A DNA stretch of 29,766 nt from a virus (IMGVR_UViG_2541047966_000011:1-29766), one strand, 5' to 3'. Shown: positions 1 to 9,166, counted from the stretch's first letter. Made by a program: numbers and translations. The notes: generated by a model from the letters alone, not told the origin.

Positions 1-534
1 ATGCTTACCCTGGACGAGATAGGTCAATCAGTACGTAACAATATCCAGTTGATTATTGATCATGTCGGCTTACCTCTTGCTGTTGGTCCGCTCAGTGATG
101 ATGATTACAAGATTCTGTGTGGTGGCTATGGTGAGCTTGAATGGGACTATGCGTTAAGTACCTATGGCAACTCCAGAGAAAAGTATGAGTTCTGCATAAA
201 ACTTGTTCAGCAAGGTCGGGTTCAGGGAATACCATCAGGAGCAGCAATTTGTGTTTATGGGGTTGAAGAAAACATCTTTCGTATCCATATGATCGAAAGG
301 TTTTCTAGAGAAGATGAATCTCACCCATTGAAAGGGCGCATGGTTTTACTCACTCTTATGAGTGCTTTTATATTTTGTAAAGCTGTTGAATGTAAAGTTG
401 TCCACATTGTAGAGCCAGTACCAGAACTGGTGCAGTATTACGAGTCTTTTGGTTTCCGCATGGAACAGTGCGGTTATGTGATGTCGGCAGTCATTGATGA
501 GCTGCAGGATATCTTTCTTAAATTTGCTCAGTAG
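1..534 (+). CDS. hypothetical protein in AT-rich cargo; C-terminus faintly resembles a GNAT-type acyltransferase motif (uncertain)
   Basis: ATG at position 1, so the ORF may extend upstream of the window. 177 codons, visibly AT-richer than the phage backbone. C-terminal LVQYYESFGF resembles GNAT motif B, but no clear motif A (Q/R-x-x-G-x-G/A) is visible. Confidence 0.45.
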   Translation: MLTLDEIGQSVRNNIQLIIDHVGLPLAVGPLSDDDYKILCGGYGELEWDYALSTYGNSREKYEFCIKLVQQGRVQGIPSGAAICVYGVEENIFRIHMIERFSREDESHPLKGRMVLLTLMSAFIFCKAVECKVVHIVEPVPELVQYYESFGFRMEQCGYVMSAVIDELQDIFLKFAQ

Positions 535-951: not shown

Positions 952-1233
952 TTAGTGATGTTCTTTGCCCTTCTGTTTGCTTGTTCTGACCTGTTCCCAC
1001 TCGATACGTCCTTCTTCTCGTCTTTTGTCTATGTATTCCGCAAGATCCTGAATATTGATGCAACGTTTTGCTTTTTGTGATGTGCCGATGCGATATGTTG
1101 GAACGGGCAACTTACAAGCGTTTGCTTTTGCTTCTGCCGTGGCTGGACTCATGCCAAAGTACTTTTGGCTAACTGCTGAGAGTTCAATGTTAGGGGTATT
1201 GAATTCAGCCATCAGTAAAAACAAGGTGTTCAT
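952..1233 (-). CDS. PrtN-like (pyocin activator family) DNA-binding protein, possible excisionase-like regulator
   Basis: ORF-track frame 952..1260 opens with GTG. The internal ATG at 1233 (MNTLFLLMAEF...) has GGAG 6 nt upstream and matches the usual PrtN-family N-terminus as I recall it. Family assignment from memory. Confidence 0.55.
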   Translation of the reverse strand: MNTLFLLMAEFNTPNIELSAVSQKYFGMSPATAEAKANACKLPVPTYRIGTSQKAKRCINIQDLAEYIDKRREEGRIEWEQVRTSKQKGKEHH

Positions 1234-1269
1234 AATTTTCTCCATCAAAACCGGCTGCACCCGGGAAAA

Positions 1270-1842
1270 TCATAATTCTGTGCTGGTGGCAGGAATTAAT
1301 TTCTGCCAGATAGCGGAAACATATTTTGCCTGATGACGGGCATCAGCCAGGGCGTTGTGCCGTTCGCCATCGAAAGGCATGTCCATTTTGGGGTCGAATC
1401 CGATGGAACGCCCAAGCGTAACGATCGTGCGTACATCGTGGTCATTCCAGTATGCCCACGGGCAGATTTGTCCTGCTCGCTCATAAGCTCCACGTAAAAT
1501 TACGTTGTCGAAGGTGGCTCCGTTACCCCAGACTTTTAAATATTTCGTATTGTCTGCGTGCCGGTTAATGAAATGATTTAGTTCTGAGAGAGCATCGCTG
1601 ATCGACAAAGTATCATCAATACAGATTGCAGCTCGTGCTTCAGGGCTTTGTTTCAACCACCACAGGATGGTATCGCCGTCAGGTGTAGCTCCTTGCCCCA
1701 TAGCACTTTCCAGGCTAACAACCGTATAGAATTCTTGTCCGATGTCTCCGGTTTCTGGAGTGAAGAACACCGCGCCAATGGAAACGATCGGTGCATCCTT
1801 ATTTTTCCCCATCGTCTCAAGGTCGATCATTAAGTTGTTCAT
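1270..1842 (-). CDS. DEDD-type (DnaQ-like) 3'-5' exonuclease
   Basis: N-terminal MIDLETMG carries the Exo I D-x-E motif. ATG at 1842 sits after AGGAGG (spacing 6) and overlaps the upstream gene stop as TGATG. The ORF-track start at 1845 is GTG. Confidence 0.7.
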   Translation of the reverse strand: MNNLMIDLETMGKNKDAPIVSIGAVFFTPETGDIGQEFYTVVSLESAMGQGATPDGDTILWWLKQSPEARAAICIDDTLSISDALSELNHFINRHADNTKYLKVWGNGATFDNVILRGAYERAGQICPWAYWNDHDVRTIVTLGRSIGFDPKMDMPFDGERHNALADARHQAKYVSAIWQKLIPATSTEL

Positions 1843-2633
1843 CACTTCACCTCCTGCGGCGGTTCCGGTAGCGGCATCCAGTGAGTTGCTTGCTCAATAC
1901 CATTACCCGGCTTAATCGTTGCATCTCCGCGCCGAAAGGTGCTTCCGGTATAGCGTGCGGAGCATATTAGCGGTTCAACCAGAGAGCTATCGAAATTCAC
2001 CGAAATAAGCACGTTCTGATTCTTTTCCGGCATTCGATCACTACAGCTTATCCAACTATCCGGAGTTCCCGGAGAGTTGCCATTTACATCGAAGTTTGGC
2101 TCTGCGTCCTGAACCAGGAGGATGTAACCATTCTTGGCAGTATCAAGTTCTAACGCCTCGGTGACGGTGCCGAAATAGCGATTACCTAAATCAGCATCAC
2201 AAGTGCTTACATCAATGGAAACTTCCATGCCCTCGATTAATTCTGGCAAGTTGTAAGTTTGGCTTACGGGTTCGGCTTCCAGTTCTGCTATGCGCTTTTT
2301 TGCTGCTTCCAGCTCAACACGCAGCTTCCCTACCGTTAGCGCAATTTCCTCGTTCTCCTGGTCGCGTGATTTGATGTATTGCTGGTTTCTTTCCCGTTCA
2401 TCCAGCAGCGCCTGCACTACTTCAGGGTTGAAAGCTGCGATATAACGAGCGTTGTTCTCTGCGTTTTTCTGTTCGTCGAATCCTGGCCAGTCGACAATAT
2501 CTCCGTGATGATTATCACCTGGTGTGTGTACGGCGTACGTGCCGTATTTGCCCGGCGAAATAAATGCGACCCATTCACCCTGTGTTGCCTTTTCTGCCGC
2601 ATCACGTAGCGCCTGATAATTAATTTTTCTCAC
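1842..2633 (-). CDS. Ead/Ea22-like protein with DUF551-like C-terminus
   Basis: 263 aa with a coiled-coil segment (ELEAAKKRIAELEAE) and a C-terminal W-x-PLPEPP-type region typical of DUF551 as recalled. GTG start preceded by GGAGG within the repeat CTCACTGGTTGCCTCCTTTGCGAA. Confidence 0.6.
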   Translation of the reverse strand: MRKINYQALRDAAEKATQGEWVAFISPGKYGTYAVHTPGDNHHGDIVDWPGFDEQKNAENNARYIAAFNPEVVQALLDERERNQQYIKSRDQENEEIALTVGKLRVELEAAKKRIAELEAEPVSQTYNLPELIEGMEVSIDVSTCDADLGNRYFGTVTEALELDTAKNGYILLVQDAEPNFDVNGNSPGTPDSWISCSDRMPEKNQNVLISVNFDSSLVEPLICSARYTGSTFRRGDATIKPGNGIEQATHWMPLPEPPQEVK

Positions 2634-3226
2634 TGGTTGCCTCCTTTGCGAAGCTCTGCAGCGAAATATACAGCTGCGGAAACAATAGCTGCATGTCGGT
2701 ATTCACCATCAGAAAATAAAGAATCTCCCTTAAGTGCATTGACGATACTCTGATGATTTTTTGCCAGCATCTCCACGCCCTGCGCCCGTACTTCAGCCAG
2801 AAAAGCATCGGTGGCTGGCATATTTCCTGTTGCCTTCATGTCCTCCAAAATAACCAGAACGCTATCTCGCCCAACCACCTCAGCGATAACCTCGGTGTTG
2901 TCGCCAACAACATCGCAGAATGCCTGAACTGCCTTACGAGCCAGCTCATTCTCCGCCGCAAGCGCCGAAAACTTCTCGTGTGCCAACTTAACAGCTTCAT
3001 CAGCCTGCTTAATTGACTCAATCGATTTCTGTTGGTCTTCGGCCAGCCCTGCTAAATCAGCCTCCAGTTCGGCCAGGCGTTCATTTAATGCATCTCGTTC
3101 ATCCAGTAGAGCCAGCACAACCTGAGGTGTGACTTTCATACGAAATGCCAGCAATTTTTGTGGTGTGGCTGCTATTTTTATTGCTTCTGCCGCCCCACGC
3201 AGTGCCTGATAGTCAATCTTGCTCAC
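2630..3226 (-). CDS. Ead/Ea22-like protein (paralog B)
   Basis: Shares N-terminal xxKIxYQALRxAAE with paralog A, and an internal ESIKQADxAVKLAHEKFSALAAEN block and C-terminal RKGGNQ with paralog C. Start set to the GTG at 3226 (VSKIDYQ), which sits in the same repeated RBS context as paralog A; the ORF-track frame extends to 3259. Confidence 0.55.
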   Translation of the reverse strand: MSKIDYQALRGAAEAIKIAATPQKLLAFRMKVTPQVVLALLDERDALNERLAELEADLAGLAEDQQKSIESIKQADEAVKLAHEKFSALAAENELARKAVQAFCDVVGDNTEVIAEVVGRDSVLVILEDMKATGNMPATDAFLAEVRAQGVEMLAKNHQSIVNALKGDSLFSDGEYRHAAIVSAAVYFAAELRKGGNQ

Positions 3227-3852
3227 TGGTTGCCTCCTTTGCGAATCTGTTCCGCCCATTCTTCAAGGGATTTCTCCGCATATTCACCGGACAGGCCATC
3301 AATCGGGTGCGGCTCATTAGCCAACTCTTCTTTCGCTGACAGAATCATGCGCGTAACGTCGAAAACTTCACGCAAAGACTTATTGATAAATCCGTGATTG
3401 AACGCAGCAGCAAGACGGCTGGCGGCATAATTAATCCCCTCGTTGCGTGCTTCCGCACGTACTTCAGCAAGGAAAGCGTCGGTGGCTGGGGTATTTTCCA
3501 TTAGTTTTTTTGACGTTGACCAAAGCGCGGAAAGCCACTCTTTATCAAACCATTTATCCTTATGGTGAAACATTTCATCAACTGTCTGGTGGCAGCGGGA
3601 TACCTCAAAAAGGCACCGCGCATTCTCCGCCGCCAGCGCTGAAAACTTCTCGTGTGCCAACTTAACAGCCGCATCAGCCTGCTTAATTGACTCAATCGCT
3701 TTCTGGTGGTCTTCGGACAGAGCCGAAATCTTGGCCTCCGCTTCAGCAAATTTACGCACCAGATATTCAGCATTTGTTTCATTCACTTTCAGATCTCGTG
3801 GTACACATTTCCCGCGAAGAAACCCTTCCATTTCGAAAACATTCATGCGCAT
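3223..3852 (-). CDS. Ead/Ea22-like protein (paralog C)
   Basis: 209 aa sharing internal and C-terminal blocks with paralog B. ATG at 3852 has GGAG about 8 nt upstream; stop overlaps the paralog B start (GTGA). Confidence 0.55.
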   Translation of the reverse strand: MRMNVFEMEGFLRGKCVPRDLKVNETNAEYLVRKFAEAEAKISALSEDHQKAIESIKQADAAVKLAHEKFSALAAENARCLFEVSRCHQTVDEMFHHKDKWFDKEWLSALWSTSKKLMENTPATDAFLAEVRAEARNEGINYAASRLAAAFNHGFINKSLREVFDVTRMILSAKEELANEPHPIDGLSGEYAEKSLEEWAEQIRKGGNQ

Positions 3853-4379
3853 TTGCGTAACTCCGATAACTCGTTAAAACGTTCCATAAACATCCCGTAG
3901 GCATGGCCTGGCGACAGTGGAATCACTTTGAACATCTCTGTTGCCGGGATACCTTCCAGTACAGGCCAGAAAGAGCCATCATCAAGCCCGAGATCGCGGC
4001 GTTCGGTTGCCAGCATGATGAGATCGGCATATTTCACGGGCGTGCTCATAACCGGGGGTAACCCGTATTTCTCACGGATTACGGCGTCTATTTTTTCTTC
4101 CATCCGTTTATAGTCAGGAAGAAGGCGTTTCAGTGGCGCGGGGATGTCCTGACAATACGCTTCTGTTGCATCATGCATTAACGCTTCGAAAGCAAACTCC
4201 TGCGGTACCAGTTGGCTGCAAAGCACCGCATGTTGGGCGACGCTGTAGAAGTGTGAAAGATGTCCTGCAAAGCGACAGATATTTGAAAGGGAAACCGCGA
4301 TATCGTTAATCACGATGTCGTCTTTATTTATCCTGTCATAATAAAAATGCTTCCCGGAAAAAGTTTTAATAAATGACAT
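3843..4379 (-). CDS. HD-domain phosphohydrolase (YfdR-like 5'-deoxynucleotidase family)
   Basis: H...HD...D signature in GHLSHFYSVAQHAVLCSQ...ALMHDATEAY. Start placed at the ATG at 4379 (MSFIKTF...) with GGAG 6 nt upstream; the ORF-track frame extends to 4406. Confidence 0.7.
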   Translation of the reverse strand: MSFIKTFSGKHFYYDRINKDDIVINDIAVSLSNICRFAGHLSHFYSVAQHAVLCSQLVPQEFAFEALMHDATEAYCQDIPAPLKRLLPDYKRMEEKIDAVIREKYGLPPVMSTPVKYADLIMLATERRDLGLDDGSFWPVLEGIPATEMFKVIPLSPGHAYGMFMERFNELSELRKCA

Positions 4380-4472
4380 TTTGTTCTCCACGTATATGCG
4401 CTGCACCGCGCTGAATTCTGGTAAAAGGAAGCCCTCACCATCCGGTGATTATTGAGTTAATTACGTTTCCAT

Positions 4473-4494
4473 AAATGCCCCCGCAGGGGCATTT
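4473..4494 (-). terminator. stem-loop AAATGCCCC-cgca-GGGGCATTT, possible attenuator or terminator
   Basis: 9-bp perfect stem with a 4-nt loop in the intergenic gap between the YfdQ-like and HD genes. No strong U-tract follows on the transcribed strand, so termination efficiency is uncertain. Confidence 0.35.
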
Positions 4495-4506
4495 GCAGTA
4501 ATGAAA

Positions 4507-5331
4507 TCAGGCGGTGAAAGTACCAATAAAGGTTTCTACTTTGCTGTCTTTGAATTTCTCAACAAGCAGATCACGAAATTCGTTAGCCATTTCTTCCTGC
4601 ACCGCTTCCAGCTGAATAATGCGCAGAACCAGTACAGGACGATCGCCAGTGATAATGCTGAGGCGTAATTTAAATGGACGTTCTTTCAGACCTTCAAACG
4701 GAACGCATTTAAATTCAAATGCCACTGGCATAATATCTTTGGTCTTCGCTTCGACAGACTCCATCAGGGAGCGTTTGCCGCTGAAGTCATTATCTTCAAA
4801 ATCAGCGGTCTGGTTCGCTTCAATTGTGATTTTACGGATAGCCGCCGCCGCTTTGGTTGCCTGAATGGCGTCACCATTAGCATCAAAGCCCACAAGGTAG
4901 TCGGCCCAGTCTTCAATCCATTCTGCCAGTGATTTCTGGGAGTTACGCTCGCCATTAATAGACAACAGAGCAGAGAACGGTGCTGTCTTTTTCAGTTTGA
5001 GAGTGGCGGTGTTATCTGCGTGACCTGGTTCATCAATAGTACCCAGGTTAAGCACACTGACGGCACGCATATTATCAGCATCGATAAAGCAGCGGGTGCC
5101 TTCATCTGCAAGCTCTTTAGAATAACGGGTAAAGTCATCGATGCTGGCAGTGGAAAGCGCACCACGGAAACGGAAGCGATTTAAATTAAATTTTTCCAGA
5201 TCATGAATGCGGAAATTCTCAGGCAATGCCACAGCATCGGCACCAATCTTACTGATAATTTCATTAACACCCTGAGAAGAAATAAGGGCATGGATTTGAT
5301 TAATTGCGGTTGCGTCTAAGTTCTGAGACAT
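4507..5331 (-). CDS. YfdQ-like protein (DUF2303-type) of unknown function
   Basis: 274 aa; N-terminus [17 protein letters not shown]... matches what I recall of E. coli CPS-53 YfdQ. GAGGA lies 6 nt upstream of the ATG. Confidence 0.6.
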
Positions 5332-7442: not shown

Positions 7443-8006
7443 ATGAGGCTAACCGTGGGTAAGCATCACTGGAAAGTAGAAAAACAGCCTGAGTGGTACG
7501 TGAAAGCTGTCAGAAAAACTATCGCGGCGTTGCCGGGGGGTTACGCTGAAGCTGCTGAGTGGCTGGATGTAACAGAGAACGCTTTATTCAACCGCCTTCG
7601 TGCAGATGGCGATCAGATTTTCCCGCTGGGATGGGCAATGATTTTACAGCGCGCGGCTGGCACTCACTACATTGCGGATGCTGTCGCACAGTCTGCTGGT
7701 GGGGTGTTTGTATCGCTTCCTGAAATTGAGGAAGTAGAGAACGCCGATATAAACCAGCGCCTGCTGGAAGTCATCGAACAGATCGGGAGTTACTCAAAGC
7801 AGATTCGTTCGGCAATCGAAGATGGGGTAGTGGAGCCACACGAGCAGACAGCAATTAATGATGAGTTGTATCTGTCAATTTCGAAGCTCCAGGAACATGC
7901 AGCACTGGTCTACAAAATCTTTTGCGCTCCAGAAAAGAGTGACGCCCGCGAGTGTGCAGCTCCGGGCGTCGTGGCGTTTTGTGTCTGTGGAGAAACTAAC
8001 GCATGA
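7443..8006 (+). CDS. CII-like regulator (YdaT-family-like)
   Basis: 187 aa immediately after the Cro-like gene, the position CII occupies in lambdoid phages. Family assignment from memory, not a visible motif. Confidence 0.5.
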   Translation: MRLTVGKHHWKVEKQPEWYVKAVRKTIAALPGGYAEAAEWLDVTENALFNRLRADGDQIFPLGWAMILQRAAGTHYIADAVAQSAGGVFVSLPEIEEVENADINQRLLEVIEQIGSYSKQIRSAIEDGVVEPHEQTAINDELYLSISKLQEHAALVYKIFCAPEKSDARECAAPGVVAFCVCGETNA

Positions 8007-8151
8007 ACAGTTTAACGGCAAATAACCGTTTGTCGCAACAGCTGGTGGTCAGTGTCGCTGCACACCTGTTGTTACGGCATGAATGCAGATTACCAAATCA
8101 CCTGGCTGTAAGTAACCACAGAGAACTTTACCTGACTGTGGGGGGCGAGTT

Positions 8152-8331
8152 GTGCAGGAACTTAACCGCTGGTTTCGTGACGGAAGAGGACTTTATGTTC
8201 ATGTTATTCGTTGGGAGCCAGAAACACAGCGCGTTATCTATCTTCGCAAAGACTACCCGCATGAGTGCTTTAGTCCTTTGTGGAAATTCAGGCGTGATTT
8301 TGTTGAGTGTGAAGGACCACCAGCACATTGA
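8152..8331 (+). CDS. small hypothetical protein (59 aa), uncertain
   Basis: Not in the ORF track. GTG start after a G-rich stretch (GGGGGGCGAG); translation VQELNRWFRDGRGLYVHVIRWEPETQRVIYLRKDYPHECFSPLWKFRRDFVECEGPPAH. Protein-like composition but no recognised family. Confidence 0.3.
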   Translation: MQELNRWFRDGRGLYVHVIRWEPETQRVIYLRKDYPHECFSPLWKFRRDFVECEGPPAH

Positions 8332-8608
8332 TTCTGCCATTCCGGGACGTTACACTGTTCAGGCACCTTATAAAACGGGTGCCGGGATTGGCGTCCTGAA
8401 ATTGATTACTGAGCATAACCGCGCTCATGCGGTTTTTTCGTGTCATGAGCATTGCTACGCCCAAATTATGGTGGGGCGTACAGGGCCGACTTCGGTCGGG
8501 CCGGGTTCGGTAGTCTCCGGTAACGCCAACCCTGTACGTCTCACCACCTCTGTGATTGGCGTCCCATGTGGTGAGTTTTCTAAAAAACTGACTACCGGGG
8601 CTGTCACC

Positions 8609-9166
8609 ATGACTACTCTCCCAACCCTCTCTCAACCTGAAATTGCCATCGTTGATGGTCAGGCTGTTACATCTTCTTTGGCTGTTGCTGACTTCTTCTC
8701 TAAACGTCATGACGATGTTCTGAAAAAGATCCGCATTTTGGATTGTTCTCCAGAGTTTTGTGCCCGCAATTTTGCGGAGACATCAATTTTGGTACGCCAG
8801 CCCAACGGCGGTACTCGCAAACTTCCTTGCTATCAAATAACCCGCGACGGCTTTGCGTTTCTTGCTATGGGTTTCACGGGGAAACGTGCTGCCCAGTTCA
8901 AAGAGGCATACATCAATGCCTTTAACCAGATGGAGAAACAGCTTTCAAAGCCCTCTGTACCGAGCGACGTTGCACATAACGCCAGCGTTCTCTGTTCCTA
9001 CATTTCATCAATTCATCAGGTCTGGTTGCAGCAGCTTTATCCCATGCTGGAAAAAGCTGAATCACCGCTGGCTGTAAGTCTGTATGACCGAATTAACGAT
9101 GCGGCATTTCTTGCCCGTCTTATTCATTCGTCGCTGAACTCTTCAGAGGTAAGGGGGCGCAAATGA
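8609..9166 (+). CDS. rha: phage regulatory protein Rha
   Basis: From ATG 8609: MTTLPTLSQPEIAIVDGQAVTSSLAVADFFSKRHDDVLKKI...PCYQITRDGFAFLAMGFTGKRAAQFKEAYINAF, a typical Rha N-terminal pattern. The ORF-track frame runs from 8003, but the upstream 200 codons look non-genic. Confidence 0.7.
   Translation: MTTLPTLSQPEIAIVDGQAVTSSLAVADFFSKRHDDVLKKIRILDCSPEFCARNFAETSILVRQPNGGTRKLPCYQITRDGFAFLAMGFTGKRAAQFKEAYINAFNQMEKQLSKPSVPSDVAHNASVLCSYISSIHQVWLQQLYPMLEKAESPLAVSLYDRINDAAFLARLIHSSLNSSEVRGRK

Follow-up and report, generated by a model that had tools for sequence, protein, structure and literature searches.

We propose that three neighboring genes of this virus, here called C, B and A, are very probably a mosaic of accessory genes whose modules are swapped at a linker and at other short conserved islands, the linker being population-wide and the trio stable once assembled. 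The genes lie on the minus strand of the window, by which we mean the whole stretch of 29,766 nucleotides analyzed (IMGVR_UViG_2541047966_000011:1-29766), and make up an accessory 'ea' gene trio of an E. coli lambdoid prophage of the CPS-53/e14-like kind, within its leftward early operon. The order of transcription, all from the minus strand, is yfdR-like hydrolase, C, B, A and 3'-5' exonuclease. Both flanking genes were identified by ORF and Pfam: upstream, a yfdR-like HD-domain 5'-deoxynucleotidase (3843..4406), the stop of which overlaps the start of C, and downstream, a Rv2179c-like 3'-5' exonuclease (1270..1845). Judged by their sequences, C appears to be an EaE-like gene, B an Ea22/EaE chimera and A an Ea22-DUF551 fusion, and each of them follows the tripartite Ea22 plan, in which a short N-terminal segment leads into a coiled coil and this into a C-terminal part that can be exchanged. 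A scan for promoters returned no promoter-like site within the array, the 12 terminator-like sites observed there are not in excess of the 7.3 ± 2.9 expected from shuffles, and Rfam and tRNA scans gave no match in the array. A weak terminator-like site lies inside B (2872-2857). For the three proteins, an NCBIfam scan yielded sub-threshold noise only and a sequence search of the PDB no chain at E ≤ 0.2; their PHROGs matches, because of the mosaicism, are spread over many overlapping families, all of unknown function.

Gene A (1842..2633, minus strand; ORF and Pfam) codes for 263 aa from a GTG start at 2633 and reads as a fusion in which an Ea22 N-terminal domain and coiled coil precede a C-terminal DUF551 domain: residues 3-117 match Ead_Ea22 (PF13935) with 116 bits and residues 193-260 match the full 68-position profile of DUF551 (PF04448) with 78 bits, the Pfam gathering scores being 27 and 22 bits, respectively, so that A belongs to both families. 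It is 45% identical to lambda Ea22 over residues 1-81, its coiled-coil core is 68% identical to that of P22 EaD, and its DUF551 part matches the C-terminus of P22 EaA (E = 6e-10 by BLASTP). The DNA of the core (LLDERERNQQYIKSRDQENEEIALTVGKLRVELEAAK; 2293..2417, minus strand) forms a conserved island, found in about 100 of some 185 loci, and homology breaks at the low-coordinate edge of this island (about 2282-2298); many relatives encode the Ea22 and DUF551 parts as separate genes. Gene B (2630..3226, minus strand) is an ORF of 198 aa with a GTG start at 3226, the form called by RefSeq and other records; a 209-aa ORF from the ATG at 3259, also considered for B, does not begin at the start used in public records and was set aside. 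The sequence of B suggests a chimera of the Ea22 and EaE-like families, as an Ea22-type N-terminus (VSKIDYQALR...LALLDER) is followed by an EaE-type coiled-coil block, PATDAFLAEVRAQG and an RKGGNQ tail. Residues 13-107 of the 209-aa reading match Ead_Ea22 with 39.3 bits, above the gathering score, and B is 47% identical to residues 1-45 of lambda Ea22; the similarity to P22 EaE is weak (35% over 65 aa, E = 7e-5).

Gene C (3223..3852, minus strand) is an ORF of 209 aa, a length on which public gene calls agree; an alternative ATG at 3846 would give an ATGA overlap with the upstream stop. Its layout comprises an N-terminal segment, a long helix/coiled coil, the PATDAFLAEVRA motif, a variable C-terminal region and the RKGGNQ tail. 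On sequence similarity we assign C as EaE-like rather than Ea22-like, a class defined by pairwise similarity to P22 EaE and with no curated Pfam or NCBIfam model: C is 43% identical to the C-terminal half of P22 EaE over 86 aa (E = 9e-21 by BLASTP), falls into PHROG 14548/614, and matches no Pfam family at E ≤ 0.01, Ead_Ea22 included, while its BLASTP comparison with lambda Ea22 gives E = 1.6. The preliminary description had seen three Ea22-like paralogs here, which is right for A and B, both of which match Ead_Ea22, but not for C. Close relatives of C are still named 'ead/Ea22-like' in some public records. An AlphaFold2 model of C, built from a 34-sequence alignment, is all-helical (pLDDT 67.7), with a long helix at residues 47-96; a Foldseek search of the PDB with this model returned generic helical proteins only, all at E > 1.

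The two junctions within the trio carry the same exact 24-mer, J1 between B and A at 2629..2652 and J2 between C and B at 3222..3245 (both minus strand). Such a repeat had been described before, at 2622-2645 and 3219-3242; it is real and present twice in the window, although those coordinates were slightly off. No match to the 24-mer, even with up to three mismatches, was found in 100 shuffles, and at 83% identity the repeat can be followed over 71 nt (2592-2662 and 3185-3255). On the coding strand, TTCGCAAAGGAGGCAACCAGTGAG consists of the codons for R K G G N Q and the stop TGA, and it also holds the SD sequence AAGGAGG, a 6-nt spacer and GTG. The stop and RBS, together with a GTG start, that had been read into the junction are thus confirmed on the minus strand, with the GTG overlapping the stop: at J2 the TGA of C occupies 3225-3223 and the GTG of B 3226-3224, and at J1 the stop of B occupies 2632-2630 and the GTG of A 2633-2631. 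At both junctions stop and start overlap as GTGA, AAGGAGG stands 6 nt before the GTG, and public gene calls use these starts. Because of the embedded SD and the GTGA overlap, the genes on either side of both junctions are most likely translationally coupled. The start of the exonuclease gene is also coupled to the stop of A (CAGGAGGTGAAGTGATG), and an SD sequence is again found within the last codons of A. A reading of the junctions as RNA elements was considered and dropped, as folding of both junction contexts is no better than that of shuffled controls (z = +0.45 and +1.29).

The 24-mer is not particular to this array. It occurs exactly in at least 120 IMG/VR viral contigs, nearly always as a single copy among the matches listed, and among the same matches the proteins next to it number 98 distinct ones upstream and 86 downstream; conservation is lost within some 20 nt on its upstream and some 60 nt on its downstream side. 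It is therefore the population-wide major allele of a linker, and for this reason the identity of its two copies in the window is uninformative on, and no trace of, recent duplication. We then looked at synonymous sites in 131 distinct contexts retrieved with a codon-degenerate RKGGNQ-stop pattern, a search that demanded the RKGGNQ peptide and so covers linkers with this tail, as distinct from others such as the RKGVQS of P22 EaE. The K and first G codons are AAA GGA in 131/131 contexts, and the GGC, AAC and CAG codons are each used in 129/131; in the two CAA variants of the linker, the GTG start becomes ATG. In contrast, the adjacent conserved Ala, Tyr and Glu columns freely use two to four synonymous codons. 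The near invariance of synonymous sites points to constraint on the linker at the nucleotide level. The contexts are, however, related by descent and recombination, and the invariance of the spacer (GGC AAC CAG) may come partly from shared ancestry or homogenization rather than from selection for translation.

Could RKGGNQ instead be kept for a role of the protein, as a C-terminal ligand or a degradation tag, with the embedded SD incidental? We consider this doubtful. The peptide is invariant in the sampled set, and the tail of C is predicted to be disordered (residues 206-209, pLDDT < 50), both of which would suit such a role. But a role of the peptide does not account for synonymous positions that are almost fixed in the tail while neighboring conserved residues vary in codon, nor for the use of GGA, which is not known as a preferred glycine codon of E. 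coli, nor for a tail that always ends in a start-codon overlap. Moreover, the linker core is the same at the end of P22 eaE (CAGCTTCGCAAAGGAG), which overlaps the next start (ATGA); its tail differs in peptide (RKGVQS), yet retains CGCAAAGGAG. A conserved '+GE' tail, its significance stated as unknown, has also been reported in Ea22 proteins (PMC7093339) and could be counted in favor of a protein motif; of 45 distinct '+GE' 3' ends, however, 39 have behind them an ORF of 40 aa or more whose start overlaps the stop or lies one base past it. The conserved Ea22-type tails, RKGGNQ and '+GE', are best explained as the RBS and start signal of the next gene, and not as a protein motif.

Beyond the linker, the three genes share short blocks, and both similarities noted in the preliminary description, a common N-terminus in A and B and an internal block plus C-terminal RKGGNQ in B and C, were recovered. 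Between A and B, protein similarity is confined to about 14 N-terminal residues and the LALLDER motif, and DNA sharing to 42 nt at 81% identity (5' end) and 35 nt at 80% (LALLDER block). B and C are 35% identical over 203 residues and have in common, besides the tail, a nearly identical coiled-coil block of 31 residues, 29 of them the same; A and C have no detectable similarity at the protein level (E = 1.0). In DNA, the coiled-coil block of B (QQKSIESIKQADEAVKLAHEKFSALAAEN; 2944..3046, minus strand) is 92% identical to that of C (3618..3720, minus strand) over 103 nt, with exact runs of 29 and 27 nt. A recurrence had been noticed here earlier, but as a segment of about 65 bp, shorter than it is, and with the second copy about 16 nt out of register. 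A further pair is the PATDAFLAEVRA island (2783..2825 in B and 3454-3496 in C, minus strand; about 43-46 nt at 85-86% identity), which is widely conserved in relatives, its coverage peaking at 65-68 loci.

Repeats of this kind invite the view that the trio is a young tandem duplication, in which the repeats drive unequal crossing-over and copy number differs among or within lysogens. Direct repeats are indeed at hand, the 24 exact nt with a spacing of 593 bp and the 103-nt repeat (92% identity) with one of 674 bp, and an exchange within either pair would remove B precisely or produce a C/B fusion; related phages, too, carry one to four genes of the family near the linker, and close prophage relatives have none or one Ea22-like gene in the interval. 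We nevertheless find a young duplication improbable. Outside the islands the paralogs are strongly diverged, their proteins being 20-35% identical or not alignable, and the population-wide, invariant linker accounts for the identity of the junctions. The proposed variation in copy number among lysogens finds no echo in the assemblies: all 24 of the 24 contigs that carry the exact C allele keep the order C-B-A, identity over all 2011 bp is 99.35-100% in the 16 loci with a complete array, and in every one of these the junction copies are 593 bp apart. No C-J-A deletion derivative of this haplotype was found, and 24 bp is about the shortest length on which RecA-dependent exchange can act. Fifteen of the 16 complete arrays are gap-free; the exception, L191, has two gap openings, with split C and shortened A gene calls, and since it is one of three sister assemblies of which two are intact, its gaps are probably sequencing error and no true variant. 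With one gene order and units so dissimilar, the array does not behave as a tandem array of variable copy number.

What the preliminary description had right is that the evolution of the interval proceeds by recombination. Other contigs contain each joint of the array on its own, their homology to it begins or ends at the junction or at one of the other short conserved islands, and the coverage profile across loci shows sharp conserved islands between rare segments; such coincidence of breakpoints with the linker and the islands supports modular recombination. Thus, L186 matches the window over 2298-3238 at 99.15% identity, L027 over 2003-3047 at 98.1%, L061 over 2947-3492 at 95%, and L002 over 1200-2282 at 98.4% and again over 3206-4600 at 91%. 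Breakpoints that coincide with islands are also expected from BLAST if the flanks have merely diverged, so that a crossover is strongly indicated only for near-identical segments, as at J2, itself a homology breakpoint, where an ETEC1732-like segment ends (3238) and a Lys8385Vzw-like segment starts (3206), 99% identical on one side and 91% on the other. With its diverse flanks and the coverage islands around it, J2 has the properties of a mosaic module boundary. Cassettes are swapped among relatives: prophages with about 98% identity in the alignable parts of the window have quite different cassettes in the yfdR-exonuclease interval, with none or one Ea22-like gene. All 10 SNPs between two common array haplotypes fall in a 115-bp patch in the DUF551 part of A (1923..2037, minus strand), which looks like a gene-conversion tract. 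Moreover, three loci (L006, L054 and L112) have the same arrangement with different alleles, their two junction copies sharing 16-36 exact nt. Evolution of the interval by recombination among alleles, that is, ordinary phage mosaicism, is supported.

The conserved sequence sits exactly at cassette boundaries between very diverse genes, and the exact B protein is also encoded in another operon, after the replication genes; both facts would be expected if the 24-mer were the target of a dedicated site-specific recombinase in an integron-like cassette system. This we hold to be very unlikely indeed. Neither an inverted repeat nor a stable structure is seen in the linker, the loci inspected offer no candidate recombinase linked to the array, and in its second operon B stands without the upstream half of the linker and overlaps a different 5' neighbor by 14 nt. 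Breakpoints are also seen inside genes, at other islands, a pattern better suited to homologous recombination of the general or relaxed kind than to one fixed site. The mosaic could, alternatively, have been made in silico, as an assembly chimera that joined several prophages at short repeats; the region is full of islands common to many prophages, and among complete E. coli genomes and phage records there is none with 80% or more coverage of 1700-4000. A search of complete genomes had in fact first suggested a unique or artefactual arrangement, an idea rejected when look-ups with the exact proteins found it unchanged in many draft assemblies. The probability of a chimera is vanishingly small: a 100% identical 2011-bp array is present in the independent assemblies GCA_000461635.1 and GCA_039691335.1, GCA_014748925.1 is identical over the 1,418 bp on its contig, the array is found at 99.5% in at least 10 more assemblies, including contigs of 4.3 and 5.0 Mb, and each joint is seen in other contexts too.

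Experiments with lambda and Stx phages have shown that lambda Ea22 is a tetramer with a pro-lysogenic phenotype, and the Ea22 domain plan and its mosaic variants, including one with a DUF551 C-terminal domain, have been described (PMC7093339, PMC10834534). By homology with lambda Ea22, the proteins of the trio may likewise be early, tetrameric and lysogeny-favoring. The trio resembles lambda Ea22 and P22 EaD in the N-terminal signature xSxIxYQALRxAAE ... LALLDER of A and B, in its position in the early-left, non-essential accessory region, and in the tripartite plan with an exchangeable C-terminal domain (PMC10834534). However, C has no match to the family; the C-terminal domain of lambda Ea22, a dimeric alpha-beta fold solved by NMR, is absent from A, B and C, the alignments stopping at residue 81; and ea22 lies between exo and xis in lambda, whereas the trio lies between a yfdR-like gene and an exonuclease gene. 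A is like Ea22 variant V2 of Stx phages (Ead_Ea22, coiled coil, DUF551; PMC10834534), also in that its N-terminal segment has the same extra insert that lambda lacks, the likeness being one of architecture. P22 EaE differs from C in its N-terminal half and in its tail, RKGVQS in place of RKGGNQ, and in P22, orf45 and eaF stand between EaE and eaD, unlike the C-B-A order found here; P22 nevertheless has an analogous 26-nt exact repeat at two successive junctions, orf45/eaF and eaF/eaD.

A module theory of lambdoid phage evolution is reportedly due to Susskind and Botstein, and comparisons of HK620 and HK97 are said to have brought out conserved boundary ('linker') sequences in lambdoid modular evolution. 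Conserved boundary sequences are recombination targets in phage mosaicism (PMC3233612). Here, too, a short conserved gene-boundary sequence lies between neighbors that are non-homologous or strongly diverged and coincides with breakpoints; in contrast to the lambdoid boundary linkers, it lies in coding sequence and doubles as SD and start signal, and exchange is also seen at intragenic islands, so that whole genes are not the only modules. Mosaicism of this type is already known in lambdoid phages, of which the trio is one more example.

How might such a trio come together? The linker, the Ea22 N-terminus, the coiled-coil cores, the PATDAFLAEVRA motif and parts of DUF551 are islands conserved in DNA among otherwise diverse alleles. 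They may act as homology patches, at which recombination between co-resident phages and prophages would exchange modules. B, with both types of end, can sit between an EaE-type and an Ea22-type gene, and the linker would for that reason be present there twice; once assembled, the trio is passed on stably. A bolder possibility, to which we give little credence, is that the linker (RKGGNQ/AAGGAGG/GTGA) is a standardized 'plug' that serves combinatorial, mixed Ea22-type tetramers. If so, the plug would drop any Ea22- or EaE-type cassette into an early operon, leftward or post-replication, with coupling kept; chimeras like B might form mixed oligomers with C via the near-identical coiled-coil block; and in a multi-cassette prophage the Ea22-type tetramers would be combinatorial, their C-terminal heads differing. 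As a mosaic, the trio documents well the shuffling of lambdoid accessory regions at short DNA-conserved islands, the finished combinations being stable.

All the genes concerned are encoded on the minus strand, and the trio of ea-type genes, C, B and A in order of transcription, is part of one leftward early operon. A yfdR-like HD hydrolase gene (4406-3843) comes first, followed by C (3852-3223; 209 residues), B (3226-2630; 198 residues, GTG start), A (2633-1842; 263 residues, GTG start) and a gene for an Rv2179c-like 3'-5' exonuclease (1845-1270); the starts of the trio match the public gene calls exactly. The start of C overlaps the yfdR stop. At the C/B and B/A junctions lies a 24-mer, the linker, whose coding strand (TTCGCAAAGGAGGCAACCAGTGAG) encodes RKGGNQ and the stop TGA and carries a Shine-Dalgarno (SD) sequence, AAGGAGG, 6 nt 5' of a GTG start overlapping that stop; the same device recurs, with the sequence CAGGAGGTGAAGTGATG, at the A/exonuclease junction. 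Because scans of the array found no promoter-like site inside it and no excess of terminator-like sites, and folding found no RNA structure at the junctions, we assign the genes to a single operon, in which the three are probably translationally coupled. Just downstream of the exonuclease gene is a PrtN (pyocin activator)-like gene (952-1260, minus strand). Elsewhere in the prophage, two Rfam models score above their gathering thresholds: isrK, an Hfq-binding sRNA (8363-8439, plus strand; 60 bits), and C4 antisense RNA (8464-8551, plus strand; 82 bits). Both matches fall inside or beside a 387-residue ORF at 8003-9166, and the 8363-8551 segment is a P1/P7-type antisense immunity element. A 177-residue ORF of unknown function (1-534, plus strand) is conserved beside the prophage end in relatives.

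The linker (CTCACTGGTTGCCTCCTTTGCGAA) is present exactly twice in the window, at 2629-2652 and 3222-3245, so the identical junction repeat of the preliminary description is real, although the true positions are 7 and 3 bases higher than stated there. No third copy was found in the window with up to three mismatches allowed, and 100 shuffles gave 0 matches. The repeat can be extended to 71 nt at 83% identity. The second near-identical repeat is also real, but measures 103 nt rather than about 65 bp (2944-3046 and 3618-3720; 92% identity, including uninterrupted matches of 29 and 27 nt). Weaker blocks are common to B and C (46 nt at 85%) and to A and B (42 nt at 81% and 35 nt at 80%). The three genes had been taken for Ea22 paralogs, a view that does not survive comparison of the proteins: C has no Pfam match and no similarity to lambda Ea22, is unrelated to A, and resembles the C-terminal half of P22 EaE (43% identity, E = 9e-21). 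B has a weak Ead_Ea22 match (39 bits) and is 47% identical to residues 1-45 of lambda Ea22, its remainder being like C (35% over 203 residues) and like P22 EaE. A matches Ead_Ea22 (116 bits) and DUF551 (78 bits) and is 45% identical to residues 1-81 of lambda Ea22, an architecture already described as Ea22 variant V2 (PMC10834534). Judged by sequence, then, C is EaE-like, B an Ea22/EaE chimera and A an Ea22-DUF551 fusion. AlphaFold2 predicts an entirely helical C with one long helix at its centre (pLDDT 67.7); no informative structural neighbour of this model was found, nor any PDB sequence relative of A, B or C.

When the region was compared by BLAST with about 185 retrieved loci, narrow islands were common to 65-128 loci and the intervening segments were present in only 2-35. 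The islands are the C/B copy of the linker, the Ea22 coiled-coil core (2293-2417), the PATDAFLAEVRA blocks and two DUF551 patches. The spans matched by L186 (E. coli ETEC1732; 2298-3238, 99.15%), L027 (2003-3047, 98.1%), L061 (2947-3492, 95%) and phage Lys8385Vzw (L002; 1200-2282 at 98.4% and 3206-4600 at 91%) therefore place breakpoints at 2282-2298 and inside the C/B linker. With these breakpoints, and with every joint of the array found elsewhere among the compared loci, the earlier suggestion of homologous recombination holds for the phage population. Moreover, the exact 198-residue B protein has a second home in a different lambdoid prophage (L193, L195 and L186; 3001-3597 in each), downstream of replication genes (DnaT-like, lambda P-like and DUF977), where an unrelated gene precedes it and a different Ea22-like gene of 202-223 residues comes after; the B cassette therefore moves between operons. 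The arrangement of the trio itself recurs with other alleles in L006, L054 and L112 (an EaE-type gene, a chimera, an Ea22-type gene and two linker copies). The gene upstream of the first junction in L054 and L112 is a 116-residue C allele without residues ~44-129, which comprise the coiled-coil block and the PATDAFLA motif; it keeps both its ends nearly identical to those of C, and suggests an internal deletion or insertion through intragenic recombination.

In 15 complete E. coli genomes there are prophages that match the whole window at about 98% identity (82-91% coverage). In the four of these 15 inspected, the yfdR-exonuclease interval holds other cassettes, including yfdS, a methyltransferase, zero or one Ea22-like genes and DUF551 genes or fragments; the trio was found in no complete genome and no phage record. 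Public draft assemblies of E. coli do contain the exact trio proteins, under accessions that run consecutively, and the order C-B-A is kept in all 24 contigs read with the exact C allele. Two independent assemblies (GCA_000461635.1 and GCA_039691335.1) carry the 2011-bp array at 100% identity; it is identical over the 1,418 bp that the contig of GCA_014748925.1 holds, and 99.5% identical, gap-free, in at least 10 further assemblies; the linker-to-linker distance is 593 bp in every copy. Given the uniform order, the near-identical arrays and the constant spacing, the array is thus a stable product of past modular exchange, with no repeat-driven change in copy number. The proposed variation in copy number is unsupported: the 24 contigs with the exact C all carry three genes, and other relatives hold other cassettes. 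A second common haplotype has all of its 10 SNPs within a 115-bp stretch (1923-2037) of A's DUF551 domain, the two being identical over the remaining 1,896 bp, and this patch looks like a gene-conversion tract. In one assembly (L191, GCA_020556325.1), C is split into calls of 116 and 92 residues and A is shortened to 243 residues, with two gap openings; since two sister assemblies of the same project are intact, these aberrations are probably sequencing errors.

At least 120 IMG/VR contigs contain the exact 24-mer, in nearly all cases as one copy per locus. Among the contigs listed, 98 different proteins lie upstream of it and 86 downstream, and conservation of its flanks drops to background within ~20 nt upstream and ~60 nt downstream. 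When RKGGNQ-stop was searched for in codon-degenerate form, 131 distinct contexts were recovered. All of them encode the Lys and the first Gly as AAA GGA, and GGC, AAC and CAG are each used in 129. Conserved Ala, Tyr and Glu columns beside RKGGNQ use several synonymous codons each, and in the two CAA variants ATG replaces the GTG start. Near-invariant codons beside columns that vary synonymously argue that the linker is constrained at the nucleotide level, as expected of an SD-spacer-start signal. It is unremarkable for one array to hold two copies of the linker's major allele. The linker core (CGCAAAGGAG) also stands at the end of P22 EaE, although the tail peptide differs, and P22 carries an exact direct repeat of 26 nt of its own (coding strand CAGCCCAATGAGCAACATCGACAAAC) at the successive orf45/eaF and eaF/eaD junctions (L185, 3482-3507 and 3838-3863), with the N-terminus MSNIDK common to EaF and EaD; this is the same phenomenon in a reference phage.

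A 2020 paper calls the significance of '+GE', a conserved tripeptide at the C-terminus of Ea22 proteins, unknown. The tail is encoded by AAAGGAGAG-TGA. Among the loci retrieved, Ea22-like genes that end in K/R-G-E/D have 45 distinct 3' ends, and at 39 of these an ORF of 40 residues or more begins one base past the stop or overlaps it. Because of this adjacency, the tail sequence (AAAGGAG) is probably the SD of the downstream gene; lambda ea22 (3' end at L183, 348-360) differs in having only a 5-codon relic ORF after its tail. Published work (PMC7093339, PMC10834534) already describes Ea22 as a mosaic, tetrameric protein with an N-terminal/coiled-coil/variable C-terminal plan and a pro-lysogenic effect, and the notion that recombination targets conserved boundary sequences is a classical one in phage genomics (summarized in PMC3233612). 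The array is a real but ordinary observation, which adds a well-resolved example to known phage mosaicism and a likely reason why the C-terminal tails are conserved.
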